The notes under the pieces: generated by a model
Database searches by the model: none
What the model was told of the DNA's origin: nothing
The model's input: only the letters and a program-made list of their open reading frames with translations
Source: a virus
Taxonomy: Duplodnaviria; Heunggongvirae; Uroviricota; Caudoviricetes
DNA: 4,485 nt
Strand: one strand, 5' to 3'
Virus record (IMG/VR): IMGVR_UViG_2565956603_000007
In this document: positions 1 to 4,485 of the stretch, piece after piece
Layout: every line of letters begins with the position of its first letter
How positions within the stretch are numbered: position 1 is the first letter of the stretch
Translations under genes and position numbers: made by a program

Positions 1-624
1 CACATCGATGATTTCGGTGTATGACGACCACAGCGTCTTATTCTGCAGCTGGTCCGTGGTGCTGTCCGCCGTCTCCCTGACCATCCGGATGTTAAAGGGC
101 CGGGGAGGCAGATTATCCAGAATCACCGAGGCCAGGAACTGTGAGGTGGTCTTGCCGTTAATGGTGACGTCCTTTTCTGTCACCCAGTTACCGTTACGCT
201 GTAACTGAATCAGCAGGCGGACGGATGTCGGGTTACGGTCACCCTTTGACGTGGTCTGCACCAGTGACTGCACCCCGAAGGTAACCCGCAGGCGGTCAAT
301 GTTCGCGGACGTAATGGTGCGCGTCACCGGTTTTGCCTTCGTCACTTCCACGCCCAGTCCGGTTTCAGCTCCGGAGGACTCAAAGCCTTCCGGTGGTGTC
401 TGCTCCTGCTCCCCGGCACGCCAGACCGCGGTCACACCGTGTATCACGGGATTACCGTCCGTGTCCGTCAGCGGGGTTTTGTTCACCAGGATACTCTGCA
501 GTCCCTTCACCGGACCTTCTATCGGTCCCTCACCAATCGCATCAATCACACTCATCATCTGCGTGGATTTGAGATTATCCTTCGCCTCGCGCGGTGTGTG
601 CGCCTTACCGCCACCTTTACCCAC
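1..624 (-). CDS. J: Tail tip/host-specificity protein J, N-terminal 208 codons (partial; continues beyond window start). GTG start at 624..622.
   Basis: Hand translation of the minus strand from 624 gives MGKGGGKAHTPREAKDNLKSTQMMSVIDAIGEGPIEGPVKGLQSILVNKTPLTDTDGNPVIHGVTAVWRAGEQEQTPPEGFESSG..., closely matching my recollection of the lambda gpJ N-terminus (MGKGSSKGHTPREAKDNLKSTQLLSVID...). The frame is open with no stop from 624 to position 1 (all plus triplets in phase checked). A purine-rich Shine-Dalgarno (AGGAGAGGGGGAG, plus 628..640) lies immediately upstream. Position directly downstream of I matches lambda order. Confidence 0.88.
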   Translation of the reverse strand, partial: MGKGGGKAHTPREAKDNLKSTQMMSVIDAIGEGPIEGPVKGLQSILVNKTPLTDTDGNPVIHGVTAVWRAGEQEQTPPEGFESSGAETGLGVEVTKAKPVTRTITSANIDRLRVTFGVQSLVQTTSKGDRNPTSVRLLIQLQRNGNWVTEKDVTINGKTTSQFLASVILDNLPPRPFNIRMVRETADSTTDQLQNKTLWSSYTEIIDV

Positions 625-667
625 TCGCTCCCCCTCTCCTGTCTGATGTCTGAATCTGTTTATGCCC

Positions 668-699
668 AAAAAACAACAGGCACCCCGGAGGATGCCTGT
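668..699 (-). terminator. Predicted rho-independent terminator on the minus (tail-gene coding) strand, between I and J
   Basis: Minus-strand read: ACAGGCATCC-TCCG-GGGTGCCTGT (about 10-bp stem including one G-U pair, 4-nt loop) followed by TGTTTTTT. It ends about 44 nt upstream of the J GTG start. Confidence 0.55.
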
Positions 700-736
700 A
701 TCATGACTGAATAAAAATTCTGAATATCTTCACATT

Positions 737-764
737 TTCACAAACTGACTGTGGCGCGTATAAT
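737..764 (+). promoter_or_regulatory. Sigma70-like promoter on the plus strand: -35 TTCACA (737..742), 16-nt spacer, -10 TATAAT (759..764)
   Basis: Perfect consensus -10 hexamer TATAAT and a 5/6 match to TTGACA at 16-nt spacing, inside an AT-rich intergenic island. A second TTCACA copy sits 8 nt upstream (729..734). Predicted transcription start near 771. Confidence 0.45.
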
Positions 765-770
765 TTCTCT

Positions 771-868
771 GCGTTAATTTTTTTGTCGTGACATAAGAAT
801 AATTCCTTACACTTAATCTTCGTAACTCTCCCGCAGTTCCTGTCCGCGATCACTGCGGGATTTTTTTA
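771..868 (+). ncRNA. Candidate small non-coding RNA (about 95 nt) transcribed convergently to the tail genes, from predicted promoter to intrinsic terminator
   Basis: The promoter at 737..764 is followed by an approximately 95-nt segment with no ATG on the plus strand, ending in a strong intrinsic terminator (829..868). No ORF of meaningful size on either strand across 625..874. Confidence 0.3.
829..868 (+). terminator. Predicted rho-independent terminator on the plus strand
   Basis: TCCCGCAGT (829..837) pairs perfectly with ACTGCGGGA (852..860), a 9-bp GC-rich stem with a 14-nt loop, followed by TTTTTTT (861..867) then ATTCTTTTT. The T-tract is on the plus strand only, so it acts for rightward transcription. 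Confidence 0.6.
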
Positions 869-874
869 TTCTTT

Positions 875-1555
875 TTACCCCTGCCGCCCGATAACCACGA
901 CCTTTCCGCCCCCGCCTTCATCACGGGTGCTGATGTCCTGGGATATACGGCGGGAGCCAACCAGCATTTCCCCGTAAGGCACCGGCATCGGGTTCCCCTG
1001 GGCAATCATGTTATCCAGCGAGGAAAAGTACGTGTTCTGTCTGCCGTTATCCGTTGCGCGGTAATCCGGTGTTTTTGCCTTCGGGGCCAGCATCTGGGCC
1101 ACACCGCCCAGTATCATGCTGGCCCCCAGTGAAAACAGCATCGTGGTGGCAGAAAAACCGCCGGCACTCAGGGCTGTACCCCATAACGCCATCGAGGCAC
1201 CGGCAGTGAAGAAAGAGCCCACGATGGCTGCCGCCCCCAGCACAATCTGCAGTCCACCCTTTCCGGCCCCGGCCAGTCGCGGCACAATATGGATGACCGT
1301 TCCCTCACCCAGCTGTTCGTGAAGACGGGCGTACACCGCCTCCGGTGCCGTGTCATCACCGGCAATACGTATCTGGTACCAGCCTTCGTTCATCTGACGG
1401 CGAAAGCCCGGCATCTGCATCGACAGGGCGCGAATGGCTTCCGCTGCCGTGTTCACATACAGGCTGAGGCGGCGGCCAAATCGTTGTAAATCCCCGTAAA
1501 GGCGGATGCGTGCCAGTGGCGGTGACGCCAGACTGAATGCGTTCGTCGTTGCCAT
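875..1555 (-). CDS. I: Tail tip assembly protein I (gpI-like), 226 aa
   Basis: ORF-track protein MATTNAFSLASPPLARIRLYGDLQRFGRRL...; recognisable similarity to lambda gpI as I recall it (RICLYGDLQRFGRR, IHIVPR, LGAAAI.GSFFTAGA, NTYFSSLDNM.AQGN). TAA stop at 877..875. Shine-Dalgarno GGGAGAGG upstream of the ATG at 1555. Overlaps the 3' end of K by 103 nt, as in lambda. Confidence 0.92.
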   Translation of the reverse strand: MATTNAFSLASPPLARIRLYGDLQRFGRRLSLYVNTAAEAIRALSMQMPGFRRQMNEGWYQIRIAGDDTAPEAVYARLHEQLGEGTVIHIVPRLAGAGKGGLQIVLGAAAIVGSFFTAGASMALWGTALSAGGFSATTMLFSLGASMILGGVAQMLAPKAKTPDYRATDNGRQNTYFSSLDNMIAQGNPMPVPYGEMLVGSRRISQDISTRDEGGGGKVVVIGRQG

Positions 1556-2196
1556 TTTTCGGAATACCTCTCCCGTTTACTCAGTTGTTCAGGAATATGG
1601 TGCAGCAGCTCGCCGTCACCACAGTAAACGGCGGCATGATTCGGCACCGATGATCCAAAGCAGCACAGCAGCACATCGCCTGCCTGTGCAGAGGACGGAG
1701 ACACCCGGCAAAAGCCGTTTTCCGCCAGGTTGTCCAGGTACAGGTTCTGGCCGTTGCGCCACCAGTCATCCTCGCGATGAAAATCCGGCATCTCAATCCC
1801 CGCCAGATGGTAAGCATCCCGGAACAGCGTGTAACAGTCCGTCACCCCGTGCTCAAAGCGCCGTCCCGTCAGATGTGGCACACAGCGGAATTTGTGAATG
1901 TCACCCCGGCAGACCAGCCACCAGGGCAGTGCGCTTTTTATCTGCAGCCGCCGGTCAGCCTCGCTCAGCCAGGGCAGCCCACCGGGATGACTGTGGACCA
2001 GTGCCACAATCTCCCCCTGCATCTCTGCCCGCAGCCAGTCTTCCGGTGCGATACGAAAATACGCCTCCGGCTCCGCGGAAATATTCACACAAGGGATATA
2101 CCGCTCCCCCTCCGGCGTGCTTATCACGAAGCCGCACGACTCCGCAGGCGCACACCGCCGGGCATGTGCCAGAATCGCTGATTCAGTCTGTGTCAT
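1453..2196 (-). CDS. K: Tail tip assembly protein K (gpK-like), JAB/MPN + NlpC/P60 two-domain protein; proposed 247-aa form starting at ATG 2196
   Basis: In-frame part of ORF 1453..2457 beginning MTQTESAILAHARRCAPAESCGFVISTPEGERY... JAMM-type motif HSHPGGLPWLSEAD (HxHx7Sx2D) at residues 68-81 (plus 1954..1995). NlpC/P60-like Cys in DCYTLF (C121, plus 1834..1836) with downstream His residues (NHAAVY, ELLHH). The ATG at 2196 is 10 nt after the L stop; no strong Shine-Dalgarno, so the start is less certain than the gene call. Confidence 0.85.
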   Translation of the reverse strand: MTQTESAILAHARRCAPAESCGFVISTPEGERYIPCVNISAEPEAYFRIAPEDWLRAEMQGEIVALVHSHPGGLPWLSEADRRLQIKSALPWWLVCRGDIHKFRCVPHLTGRRFEHGVTDCYTLFRDAYHLAGIEMPDFHREDDWWRNGQNLYLDNLAENGFCRVSPSSAQAGDVLLCCFGSSVPNHAAVYCGDGELLHHIPEQLSKRERYSEKWQRRTHSVWRHRHWHASAFTGIYNDLAAASACM

Positions 2197-2206
2197 AAAC
2201 CGGGAT

Positions 2207-2905
2207 TTACTGCGAAAGTTTATTAATGGAAAGGAAACCGCCAAAATTGCCGACATTCCTGCGCAGTTCACACCCGCGCATGCACTTGCTGCATCTGTCC
2301 TTACGGATATCCGTGGTGGGTTTATCGAACTCATCCGCCACAGCCCCGCCCGTGTAACCACACTCATCAGAGCGGTAGGTCCACATACAGGTGTTCGCCA
2401 GCATGATACGACCGGGAAACAGCGCCCCGTCCGTCTCGGTCGGTGTGGCCAGCACAAACGAGGCCGTCATGGCTGTCAGCTGCGACATCTGCTCCACCAC
2501 CCAGCGGTCACTCAGCTCCTGCTCCGGGTCCGCCTCCGGATTGCCCGCAACGAAATTCACCGCATCCAGAAAACGGGCATACACCCGGCGGCGGACCACC
2601 GTGGCCCCCACCAGACTCTGCAGGTCTTCTGCCATCCCGGTGACCAGACCGAACAGATTGGACACCGTCAGTGACGGGCGGGCACTGCTGCCCTTTCCGT
2701 TCATCTCAAAGTCACTGCCGTCAATCGGGTATGCCTGATACTTACGCCCCTGCCAGGTCACCGGCTCCCCTTTTTCATTCAGCTCATTACAGAAAAAATA
2801 CCGCTCACCGCCCTGTACCGTCAGGTCGATTTCCCAGAGTACCACCCGCGGTGACGGCTCTGATTTAACCGACTCGTTCAGACTTTCTTCGTGAATATCC
2901 TGCAT
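2207..2905 (-). CDS. L: Tail tip protein L (gpL-like), 232 aa
   Basis: ORF-track protein MQDIHEESLNESVKSEPSPRVVLWEIDLTVQGGERYFFCNELNEKGEPVTWQGR... ending ...NVGNFGGFLSINKLSQ, matching lambda gpL as I recall it. TAA stop at 2209..2207. Start ATG 2905..2903 overlaps the M stop by 1 nt (TGATG). Confidence 0.93.
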   Translation of the reverse strand: MQDIHEESLNESVKSEPSPRVVLWEIDLTVQGGERYFFCNELNEKGEPVTWQGRKYQAYPIDGSDFEMNGKGSSARPSLTVSNLFGLVTGMAEDLQSLVGATVVRRRVYARFLDAVNFVAGNPEADPEQELSDRWVVEQMSQLTAMTASFVLATPTETDGALFPGRIMLANTCMWTYRSDECGYTGGAVADEFDKPTTDIRKDRCSKCMRGCELRRNVGNFGGFLSINKLSQ

Positions 2906-3234
2906 CAGTTCACCACCTGCTTAAACTCCGCGCTGAACTCAACGCGCAACATCCCGACCCGCGCAGACCACCCGGCACAGGTCACCTTTATCTGCCGGTA
3001 TGCATAGGGTGGCTTCCACAAAAATGCCTTCCAGCCCCCGTGCTCTGCCAGGAACGCTTCCAGATGCCGGGCCTCCTCCCAGGTCACGGAAAGCGTCACC
3101 CTGTATGTTTTCAGGTCAGCATTCAGCCCTGCCGCCATACGCTGTGAGTACCCGTCACCAAAACGCACTTCACGCACCGATGGCTGCGAGTTCACCTCCA
3201 TATCCGGCTTCACTTTCCAGCGAAAGGTTTTCAT
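2905..3234 (-). CDS. M: Tail tip protein M (gpM-like), 109 aa
   Basis: ORF-track protein MKTFRWKVKPDMEVNSQPSVREVRFGDGYSQRMAAGLNADLKTYRVTLSV...RVGMLRVEFSAEFKQVVN, matching lambda gpM as I recall it. Start ATG overlaps the H stop as ATGA (plus 3231..3234 = tcat). Confidence 0.93.
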   Translation of the reverse strand: MKTFRWKVKPDMEVNSQPSVREVRFGDGYSQRMAAGLNADLKTYRVTLSVTWEEARHLEAFLAEHGGWKAFLWKPPYAYRQIKVTCAGWSARVGMLRVEFSAEFKQVVN

Positions 3235-4485
3235 CGACCGCTCCCTGATAACAGACCGCCATCACGCAACTGCAGCCGGAGTTCATCCTGTGCCCCCTTG
3301 CGGGCCATGTCATACACCGCCTTCATCAGCTGCGACCCCGCCTGTCCGTTGATACCGTCGTTCTGAATCACCACGTGATTGTTCTGATTAAAATTAATGC
3401 CTTCGGCCCGCCGCATCTGCGCCGGACTTCCGGCAGCACCCACATACCCCCCTTCCGCATAGCCCCGCATCAGGCGGTACAGGTTCCCGACACCAATCCG
3501 GCTGGTTGCCTCCTTCGTGAAGACAAACTCCCCGCGGTGGACAATCCCCGCTGGCTCATATTTGCCACCGGTTCCCGTAAATCCCCCGGTCGCGAAATGG
3601 AAGTTCGCCGCCGCAGCCTGAATGGCCGTCCCCGTGGAGGCAGACGCACCACCACCGAAAGCACCGCCAATGGCGCTGCCGATACGCCCGACTATCCCCA
3701 CCATCGCCTGCTTCAGAAAAATCTCTGTCAGCATGGACAGCACGGAACGGGTGAAGCTGCGCCAGTTCTGCTCACTGCCGGTCAGCATCGCCGCCATATT
3801 CTGTGCAATACCATCAAAGGTCTGCGTGGCAGCACTTTTAACCTGCGACATACTGTCCGTGGCACTCTCTTTCCACTCGCTCCAGCCGGACCTGAGGCCT
3901 GCCATCCAGTTCCCGCGAAGCAGGTCTTCAGCCGCCCAGGTCTTTTTCTGCTCTGACATGACGTTATTCAGCGCCAGCGGATTATCGCCATACTGTTCCT
4001 TCAGGCGCTGTTCTGTGGCTTCCCGTTCTGCCTGCCGGTCAGTCAGCCCCCGGCTTTTCGCATCAATGGCGGCCCGTTTTGCCCGTTGCTGCTGTGCGAA
4101 TTTATCCGCCTGCTGCGCCAGCGCGTTCAGGCGCTCCTGATACGTAACCTTGTCGCCAAGTGCAGCCAGCTGGCGTTTGTACTCCAGCGTCTCGTCTTTA
4201 TGCGCCAGCAGGGATTTCTCCTGTGCGGACAGCTGGCGACGTTGTGCCGCCTCCTCCAGTACCGCGAACTGACTTTCCGCCTTCCACAAATCCCGGCGCT
4301 GCTGGCTGATTTTCTCATTTGCTCCGGCATGCTTCTCCAACGTCCGGAGTTCAGCCTGAAGCGTCAGCAGGGCAGCATGAGCACTGTCTTCCTGACGATC
4401 GCCCGCAGACACCTTCACGCCGGACTGTTTCGGCTTTTTCAGCGTCGCTTCATAATCCTTTTTCGCCGCCGCCATCAGCGTGTTG
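3231..4485 (-). CDS. H: Tail tape measure protein H (gpH-like), C-terminal portion of at least 414 codons; 5' end lies beyond the window
   Basis: Long minus-strand ORF open to the window edge (track lists it from an internal Met at 4475). Sits immediately upstream of M with ATGA coupling, as lambda H does. Composition is typical of tape measure proteins: Ala/Gln/Arg/Glu-rich helical region followed by a Gly-rich hydrophobic segment (GSAIGGAFGGGASASTGTAIQAAAANFHFATGGFTGTGG). Confidence 0.85.
   Translation of the reverse strand, partial: NTLMAAAKKDYEATLKKPKQSGVKVSAGDRQEDSAHAALLTLQAELRTLEKHAGANEKISQQRRDLWKAESQFAVLEEAAQRRQLSAQEKSLLAHKDETLEYKRQLAALGDKVTYQERLNALAQQADKFAQQQRAKRAAIDAKSRGLTDRQAEREATEQRLKEQYGDNPLALNNVMSEQKKTWAAEDLLRGNWMAGLRSGWSEWKESATDSMSQVKSAATQTFDGIAQNMAAMLTGSEQNWRSFTRSVLSMLTEIFLKQAMVGIVGRIGSAIGGAFGGGASASTGTAIQAAAANFHFATGGFTGTGGKYEPAGIVHRGEFVFTKEATSRIGVGNLYRLMRGYAEGGYVGAAGSPAQMRRAEGINFNQNNHVVIQNDGINGQAGSQLMKAVYDMARKGAQDELRLQLRDGGLLSGSGR

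Follow-up and report, generated by a model that had tools for sequence, protein, structure and literature searches.

The I–J gap in the lambda-type tail operon of a lambdoid E. coli prophage most probably carries an autonomous small RNA (sRNA) gene, located at 737–867 on the + strand, that is an allele of the PasB/EcOnc22–24 family and forms a non-coding 'moron' antisense to the tail genes. The analysed DNA, referred to here as the window, is the whole stretch of 4,485 nucleotides from the IMG/VR virus record IMGVR_UViG_2565956603_000007. The sRNA element as such is not new, as its first detection dates back to 2014 and the name to 2021. The window allele is an unannotated, common and diverged member of this known and experimentally supported sRNA family. 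Its position, orientation, promoter, terminator and homology were established here and are described first, followed by the published relatives, the conservation of the family, its genomic site, its proposed mode of action and its distribution.

A non-coding gap between tail genes I and J

The protein-coding frame of the window was established from the ORF list and from Pfam searches, which identified Phage_min_tail, Phage_tail_L, Prok-JAB+NLPC_P60, Lambda_tail_I and FNIII-A_GpJ across the tail genes. All tail genes in the window are lambda-type and all are encoded on the minus strand:

1–624, minus strand: 5' part of J (tail-tip / host-specificity), 208 codons, GTG start at 622–624 (Pfam FNIII-A_GpJ, E 8e-43)
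875–1555, minus strand: tail assembly gene I (ORF list; Pfam Lambda_tail_I, E 3e-16)
1453–2196, minus strand: tail gene K (ORF list, Pfam)
2207–2905, minus strand: tail gene L (ORF list, Pfam)
2905–3234, minus strand: tail gene M (ORF list, Pfam)
3231–4475, minus strand: C-terminus of tail gene H (ORF list, Pfam)

The translation of J, VGKGGGKAHTPREAKDNLKS, aligned colinearly with lambda J. Junctions between the tail genes are overlapping or tight: H and M overlap by 4 nt and M and L by 1 nt, the spacing between L and K is 10 nt, and K and I overlap by 103 nt, as they do in lambda. Since the stop codon of I occupies 875–877 and the GTG of J occupies 622–624, the non-coding gap is exactly 625–874 (250 bp). 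The homologous gap in lambda, between the end of I at 15444 and the start of J at 15505, is 60 bp. The GC content was 0.32 over 701–800, 0.38–0.41 in the adjacent 100-nt windows and 0.55–0.67 in the flanks; over the whole I–J gap it is 0.41.

A first-pass annotation of the window, made from the sequence alone, had described an AT-rich non-coding island of 250 bp between I (stop 875) and J (start 624), and both the GC and the ORF data agree with that description. It had also pictured the flanking tail genes as GC-rich and tightly packed, as the overlaps, the short spacings and the flank GC of 0.55–0.67 confirm, and the lambda gap of about 60 bp that it gave matches the measured 60 bp. Its larger proposal, an acquired regulatory or small-RNA insertion inside the late operon, is borne out by the homology to PasB and EcOnc22–24 that is presented below and by the absence of the island from lambda. 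The annotation had named a GC plot, a BLASTN comparison and an Rfam search as ways to check this. The first revealed the drop in GC inside the gap; the outcome of the other two is given with the covariance model and the distribution.

That the gap encodes a small protein is highly improbable. A 50-aa ORF with a GTG start is present at 701–853 on the minus strand and a 22-aa ORF begins at 646 on the + strand, and a 'hypothetical protein' has been annotated in the gap of phages 1720a-02 and PhiR12_1. However, the minus-strand ORF measures 26, 39, 31, 32, 21 or 0 aa in the other lineages, with unrelated sequences (seven lineages compared), and the lineages are separated by indels of 1, 2, 4, 5 and 8 nt, which are not multiples of three. 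The 22-aa ORF fares no better, as its frame shifts with the length of an A-run and it is not preceded by a Shine-Dalgarno sequence. No ORF that is conserved in length, frame and sequence was found in the gap among the seven lineages, and the earlier statement that the gap holds no ORF of note therefore stands: its ORFs are short and none is conserved in relatives.

Anatomy of the sRNA unit

The features of the gap, from the J side to the I side, are as follows:

625–640, minus strand: J ribosome-binding tract, purine-rich AGGAGAGGGGGAGCGA, immediately 5' of the GTG (read from the sequence)
666–699, minus strand: tail-sense, GC-rich, terminator-like hairpin, 10 pairs over 699–676, then TGTTTTTTGG (scanner)
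702–736, + strand: A/T-rich block TCATGACTGAATAAAAATTCTGAATATCTTCACAT 5' of the promoter, a possible UP element or regulator site
737–764, + strand: sigma-70-type promoter TTCACA-16-TATAAT, 11/12 (consensus scan)
771–867, + strand: predicted primary transcript of 97 nt (promoter position, covariance model)
795–803, + strand: (A-R-N)x3 tract AAGAAUAAU, candidate Hfq distal-face site
803–821, + strand: candidate target-pairing region, UUCCUU (anti-Shine-Dalgarno-like) plus UUAAUCUUC, a putative seed
830–867, + strand: intrinsic terminator CCCGCAG(U)…(A)CUGCGGG, then A and U7 (scanner, folding)

The consensus-like promoter that the first-pass annotation had noticed is the one at 737–764. When the whole window was scanned, it was the sole strong promoter call in 4.5 kb, and it was called in two overlapping registers of one promoter site, against 1.3 expected from shuffles. 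Because the -10 hexamer ends at 764, transcription is expected to start near G771, 7 nt past the hexamer. The segment that matches the published 83-nt PasB is 784–867, and comparison of the RNA-seq coverage in the EPEC paper with the promoter position found here leaves the 5' end uncertain by ~13 nt. Of all parts of the gap, the A/T-rich block 5' of the promoter is conserved most strongly over seven lineages, more so than the sRNA body itself. The J ribosome-binding block, at the other side of the gap, is almost invariant in six of the seven gap lineages.

Within the predicted transcript, the candidate Hfq site consists of repeats of A-R-N, the Hfq-binding motif as defined by Tree et al. 2014 (PMC4104026). 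The candidate pairing region that follows includes a UCC box, UUCCUU, at 803–808 and UUAAUCUUC at 813–821. At the 3' end, the scanner called a + strand terminator at 843–859, followed by ATTTTTTT.

The window unit is an allele of PasB

PasB (pathogenicity-associated sRNA B) is an sRNA of EPEC O127:H6 E2348/69 (PMC8550237). It is 83 nt long, maps to the minus strand of NC_011601.1 at 1466343–1466261 within prophage PP6 (Pearl Mizrahi et al. 2021, PMC8550237, Table S6) and was placed between E2348C_1436 and _1437 in a '(> <) >' layout (PMC8550237). In NC_011601.1, PasB is flanked by the gene for tail assembly protein I, which ends at 1466255, and by gpJ, which starts at 1466496, both on the plus strand. 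As these flanking genes are I and gpJ, PasB lies in the I–J gap and is antisense to the tail genes, like the + strand unit of the window.

The I–J gap of E2348/69 is 240 bp, and the gaps of E2348/69 and the window align end to end. The reverse complement of the Northern probe for PasB, AATCCCGCAGTGATCGCGGAGCT (PMC8550237), matched the window at 840–862 with 3 mismatches, and no match was obtained in 200 shuffles. The two units are alike in their position between I and J, their antisense orientation, the TTCACA-16-TATAAT call, the terminator stem with its U7 tail, their similar length and the conserved blocks. They differ in sequence, as the window allele is 72% identical to PasB over the sRNA (64/89 aligned positions), with a longest common exact word of 25 nt. 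Most of the differences are 5' and central, and the terminator loop is 5 nt longer in the window allele.

The properties of PasB are those of an Hfq-dependent sRNA. A Northern band of ~83 nt was reported, the RNA falls in Δhfq with log2 fold changes of -6.8 and -2.4, and 37 RIL-seq interactions with both core and accessory transcripts were recorded (PMC8550237). Expression was higher in 'non-activating' conditions (PMC8550237). The RNA-seq base mean of PasB was 482–1082, whereas that of the neighbouring I and J genes was 5–15 (PMC8550237), and this large excess over I and J indicates that the RNA is made independently in the lysogen.

EcOnc22, EcOnc23 and EcOnc24 belong to the same family

Three sRNAs that had been described earlier in EHEC O157:H7 Sakai also belong to this family. 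EcOnc22, EcOnc23 and EcOnc24 are encoded on the + strand in prophages Sp15, Sp14 and Sp11, respectively (Tree et al. 2014, PMC4104026, Table S2). On Northern blots they measured ~85 nt and were 'destabilised' in Δhfq, and crosslinking to Hfq was reported for the Sakai allele (PMC4104026). The coordinates printed by Tree et al. are ~139 nt below those of NC_002695.2, as calibrated on AgvB1. In NC_002695.2 all three EcOnc ranges fall inside I–J gaps with minus-strand tail genes. The core of the EcOnc22/23/24 probe (reverse complement GTTAATCTTCATCGTTCTCTCCC) was found exactly in the sRNA body of the Sp15, Sp14 and Sp11 gaps, and its only other matches were at three further loci that carry the same allele. 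Taken at face value, the printed coordinates would identify EcOnc22 with the J-proximal hairpin; this identity was ruled out by the ~139-nt offset and by the match of the probe to the sRNA body.

Like EcOnc22–24, the window unit lies in the I–J gap on the strand opposite to the tail genes and includes the terminator and the AAUCUUC block. Unlike in those alleles, the probe core has no match in the window even when 3 mismatches are allowed. The promoters differ as well: the window has a consensus sigma-70 call and the Sakai lineage has none, yet EcOnc22 is expressed. The scanner returned no consensus promoter call in the BP-4795 lineage either.

The identity of EcOnc22–24 with PasB is not drawn in the PasB and Pas-distribution literature (PMC8550237, 2026 preprint). 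The table of the PasB paper gives EHEC homologues for PasA and PasD and none for PasB (PMC8550237), and the Pas-distribution preprint (Zhu, Shabalina & Storz 2026, bioRxiv 10.64898/2026.05.13.724894) does not mention EcOnc. Our analysis thus unites EcOnc22–24 (2014) and PasB (2021), which were named independently by two laboratories, with the window allele. The alleles for which expression evidence has been published differ from the window allele by ~28% or more.

A fixed scaffold with variable segments

In order to describe the family, 23 distinct alleles of the sRNA unit were gathered from 87 loci. The terminator stem CCCGCAG/CUGCGGG is identical in 22 of them, with a mismatch in the remaining one, and the terminator loop varies in both sequence and length (11–16 nt). 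The terminator that characterises the family, this stem and then A and U6–8, is present in the window at 830–867. All 23 alleles include 2–5 A-R-N repeats at the equivalent position. AAUCUUC and the UCC box are the sole conserved internal blocks over the 23 alleles, and both are unpaired in the consensus fold. The conserved blocks occur in a set order, i.e. a 5' GCGUUA, a U-run, the A-R-N repeats, the UCC box, UUAAUCUUC and the terminator with its U7 tail, and the sequence between them differs freely among lineages. Several alleles resemble recombinants of other alleles.

As the sole conserved helix is invariant, covariation neither supports nor opposes the structure. A conserved 5' hairpin, in which the U-run would pair with the A-R-N tract, was considered and rejected, since single-sequence folds differ by lineage and RNAalifold keeps the terminator alone.

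A covariance model (R1) was built from seven alleles of the E2348/69, Sakai and BP-4795 types and included no window-like allele. Its full length (model positions 1–96 of 96) matched 771–867 on the + strand of the window, with 62.5 bits and an E value of 1.5e-10 (filters off), and the second-best match in the window scored 13 bits. Other members of the sRNA family scored 46–104 bits, and a search of lambda with the model gave no match. When the whole window was compared by cmscan to 4,227 families of Rfam 15, the search named by the first-pass annotation came back empty, with no match at E <= 1; this sRNA family is absent from Rfam. We also scanned species-representative genomes with the pattern CCCGCAG-N9–17-CTGCGGGATTTTT, which proved to be a generic terminator that matched unrelated taxa; the best pattern-scan loci among the matches listed scored 31–37 bits with R1.

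The J-proximal hairpin and the size of the added DNA

The first-pass annotation had reported two intrinsic terminators in the island, one on each strand. Both structures are present, and the one on the + strand belongs to the sRNA unit. The minus-strand hairpin at 666–699, for its part, lies outside the acquired element. It was called by the scanner in all four lineages examined (window, Sakai, BP-4795 and E2348/69), and the changes in it between lineages are one-sided only and leave the base pairs intact (C-G to U·G, A-U to G·U). Direct folding of the 60-bp spacer of lambda yielded a GC-rich hairpin, AAACCGCC-UGCG-GGCGGUUU, with a U-run after it, located at the same relative position, just 5' of the J ribosome-binding site. 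The scanner did not flag this hairpin in the lambda spacer, probably because greedy extension of the stem by G–U pairs consumed the U-run.

Given the analogous hairpin in lambda, we assign 666–699 to the backbone of the I–J spacer, outside the sRNA insert. The added DNA is accordingly ~190 bp (roughly 700–870), and the insert size of 250 bp that was first assumed has to be reduced. Relative to lambda, this ~190-bp addition consists of the A/T-rich upstream block, the promoter, the sRNA and its terminator.

A second, convergent sRNA on the minus strand was also considered and was rejected, as there is no minus-strand promoter call in the four lineages; the complete RIL-seq RNA table includes no sense-strand I–J entry. 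The hairpin may act within the late operon, where unmodified RNA polymerase would be halted ahead of J and Q-modified polymerase would pass.

Other occupants of the I–J junction

To see what else occupies this site, the I–J gap was classified in 80 IMG/VR loci whose gpI is at least 96% identical to that of the window. The arrangement of the window corresponds to a gap class of about 234–259 bp among these loci. A second class, with a gap of about 343 bp (52 loci), has its J-proximal part swapped for a segment with its own stem-loop. Six loci have larger gaps, of about 850 and 903 bp, in which a gene for a Cu,Zn superoxide dismutase is located directly 5' of the sRNA on the same strand; the copy at locus L078 matches Pfam Sod_Cu with E 8e-32. 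This gene is presumably the prophage sodC-F of D'Orazio et al. 2008 (PMC2569942). Four of the sodC loci lack the sRNA promoter but keep the sRNA from ~6–7 nt 5' of its predicted start (~764/765 in the window). The I–J junction is thus a recurrent site for lysogen-expressed cargo, the sRNA and sodC-F, that is set against the late operon.

These data bear on the possibility that the gap is an inert spacer, or what is left of a larger, decayed moron such as sodC, in which a promoter and terminators occur by chance. The presence of sodC at the same junction in related prophages makes the I–J site a swap point where remnants could stay, and terminator-like matches are indeed frequent in the window (13 by the scanner, 3.8 expected). 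We nevertheless regard this as very unlikely. Lineages whose intervening sequence has diverged have retained the hexamers of the promoter, the block 5' of it, the stem of the terminator and the internal blocks. Two alleles are abundant Hfq-dependent RNAs, and the window allele has been kept at ≥90% identity in ~1,240 E. coli records.

The unit resembles the morons of lambdoid phages (Juhala et al. 2000, cited in PMC4104026). It is additional DNA lodged between two genes that adjoin each other in lambda, it brings a promoter and a terminator of its own, and its base composition is atypical. Expression of its relatives, moreover, takes place from a repressed prophage. sodC-F1/F2 are an example of such a moron (PMC2569942), and it is sodC-F that occupies this same I–J junction in relatives of the window. 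Unlike the usual moron, which encodes a protein and is oriented with the late operon, the window unit is non-coding and is oriented against it. As it contains no conserved ORF and is antisense to the operon, we describe it as an sRNA moron in reverse orientation.

A further comparison is with the anti-sRNAs AgvB and AsxR (RF02702, RF02703). The window RNA is predicted to be of the same type, a short Hfq-binding RNA encoded by a prophage, and in AgvB and AsxR the terminator at the 3' end is conserved and the 5' region, which contains A-R-N motifs, is variable, as in the window family. They differ from it in being located downstream of PR', in their length of 51–60 nt and in showing no sequence similarity to the window sRNA. 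Identity of the window unit with AgvB or AsxR was ruled out by their site downstream of PR', which is not in the tail region, and by the lack of an Rfam model match. In contrast to these anti-sRNAs, no evidence supported the sponging of another sRNA by the window RNA.

Proposed mode of action

Other alleles of the family are known to be expressed, sized and Hfq-dependent, and by analogy with them we infer expression of the window allele, its seed and its mode of action. The near-consensus sigma-70 promoter would fire in the lysogen while the late operon is silent, and its product would be an RNA of ~85–97 nt that ends at the intrinsic terminator with a U7 tail. Hfq would most likely be bound through the U-tail of the terminator together with the internal A-R-N tract. 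The most likely action is in trans, by pairing of the unstructured centre (UUCCUU … UUAAUCUUC) with mRNAs of the host or of prophages. An Hfq-dependent, trans-acting lysogen sRNA with its pairing region at 803–821 is the best supported reading, because the promoter is common to the window and E2348/69 and the terminator and blocks are common to the window and both published types. Since the scaffold is fixed and the sequence between its blocks is divergent, different prophages probably have different sets of targets.

The location of the unit brings up a role in cis, which on the available evidence is unlikely. The sRNA would then pair with the I–J spacer of the late transcript and so alter its processing, its stability or the I:J ratio; alternatively, and covered by the same estimate, transcription that runs antisense into I, K and L might keep leaky expression of the late genes low in the lysogen. 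The late tail transcript is matched at its I–J spacer by a perfect complement in the sRNA, and in all lineages the sRNA gene is located so that it is antisense to the tail operon and lies at the I–J junction. Its terminator ends 8 nt from the stop codon of I, a placement that is also compatible with a role in trans. However, the RNA of 771–867 overlaps neither the J ribosome-binding site (625–640) nor coding sequence, and a direct block of translation by the sRNA is therefore impossible. PasB, moreover, was recovered in 37 RIL-seq chimeras with other transcripts, the complete list of interacting RNAs contains neither I nor J, and expression of the tail genes is near-silent where PasB is abundant.

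Beyond the trans-acting sRNA that we favour, a broader reading may be put forward, although as a whole it is rather doubtful. The I–J sRNA would be a diversifying cassette, in which the pairing segments are swapped on a fixed scaffold by recombination between co-resident prophages. The scaffold could comprise the upstream block, the A-R-N Hfq site, AAUCUUC and the terminator. In the promoter-less relatives the sRNA would derive from the sodC-F mRNA, namely from its 3' end, and the antisense RNA could be titrated or cleaved when the late operon fires, coupling the reprogramming of the host to the lysis–lysogeny state. If this were true, each lambdoid prophage would reprogram a different set of host mRNAs. 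The allelic series on a fixed scaffold offers a direct experimental handle on the function of the sRNA.

Distribution of the island and of the window-type allele

A comparison with relatives, as named by the first-pass annotation, located the island in phages and in E. coli genomes; lambda lacks it. The gap was found at 77–95% identity in 149 phage records, mostly those of Stx-converting phages, BP-4795 and VT1-Sakai. Among 5,426 complete E. coli genomes, 1,816 (about one third) include the island, the median copy number being 2 and the maximum 11, the latter in EHEC strains. It is never annotated in the matching complete E. coli genomes. The island is thus common in E. coli, yet it is unannotated both in RefSeq and in the records of phages, absent from Rfam and sometimes misannotated as a 'hypothetical protein'.

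When the sRNA alone was used as a query, the window type (771–867) was found in 1,395 of the 5,426 complete E. coli genomes, with ~1,240 records at ≥90% identity, and the E2348/69 type was found in 1,203 genomes, with 963 records at ≥90%. In E. coli ML35, identity to the window type across the sRNA is 99%. For the published bacterial survey, the 83-nt E2348/69 sequence served as query in blastn at a word size of 28 nt (bioRxiv 10.64898/2026.05.13.724894). As the longest word common to that query and the window allele is 25 nt, shorter than the 28-nt word, the window allele was probably not counted in the survey, and the reported distribution and pathotype bias of the family may be understated. 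Isolates with the window type include some from humans, dogs, poultry and swine and from wastewater, and the gap is 100% identical to that of the window in E. coli CFSAN061770 and EC931.

Conserved block upstream of the sRNA promoter

Upstream of the promoter of the PasB-like sRNA lies a short block that varies less between lineages than the sRNA does and that includes a second TTCACA hexamer.

702–736, plus strand: block TCATGAC(T/G)GAATAAAA(A/T)TTCTGAA..TCTTCACAT, upstream of the sRNA promoter
729–734, plus strand: second TTCACA, inside the block

The Sakai and BP-4795 allele lineages retain this block and have lost the -35 hexamer that was called in the window. Since the Sakai allele is expressed despite this loss, the retention of the block suggests that it is a UP element or a regulator site. 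Expression of PasB, the EPEC E2348/69 allele, has been reported to be condition-dependent (PMC8550237).

Gene cargo and other segments in longer I–J gaps

Six of the compared loci have long I–J gaps, in which a Cu,Zn superoxide dismutase gene is found on the sRNA-sense strand, with the PasB-like module directly downstream of it.

I–J gap of ~903 bp, starting at about locus position 2184: L077 and L078
I–J gap of ~850 bp, starting at about locus position 2184: L063, L064, L067 and L076

The L078 copy matches the Pfam family Sod_Cu (E 8e-32), and the gene is presumably the sodC-F of O157 prophages. In the four loci with the ~850-bp gap, the sRNA's own promoter has been replaced and the sRNA sequence is kept from the transcription start on; in these loci the sodC 3′ UTR might be the source of the sRNA.

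The most frequent gap class among the close relatives is ~343 bp long and is represented by L051 together with some 50 further IMG/VR loci. Here the J-proximal ~190 bp are a different segment that includes a stem-loop, AAACCCCGGTATCAGCAGATACCGGGGTTTTCTTTC, with U-rich tails on both strands. Because a weak TTGCCA-18-TATCCT promoter-like sequence is located upstream of this stem-loop on the sRNA-sense strand, the segment may include a second small transcription unit.

Terminator-like hairpins

The 60-bp I–J spacer of lambda (1246–1305 in the compared locus) encodes a tail-sense GC-rich hairpin followed by a U-run, in the same relative position as the minus-strand "terminator" at 666–699 of the window. 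These tail operons therefore seem, in general, to have a terminator-like hairpin a short distance upstream of J. Over the whole window, the scanner identified 13 terminator-like sites, compared to 3.8 ± 1.8 expected from shuffled sequences; all but the two in the gap are weak stems of 5–6 pairs within coding sequence, on both strands.

Annotation and coordinates in public records

Two public records annotate open reading frames in the gap that cover the sRNA promoter and the 5′ part of the sRNA.

L089 (phage 1720a-02), 529–681, tail-sense strand: "hypothetical protein"
L090 (PhiR12_1), 506–604, tail-sense strand: "hypothetical protein"

The ORFs annotated in these two gaps lack conservation, and both entries are probably annotation artefacts. 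The sRNA peak coordinates in Table S2 of Tree et al. 2014 (PMC4104026) are ~139 nt below those of the current RefSeq record of the Sakai chromosome, NC_002695.2 (L084–L087), an offset that holds at least around 1.94 Mb (AgvB1); any mapping without this correction misplaces the EcOnc RNAs on NC_002695.2.
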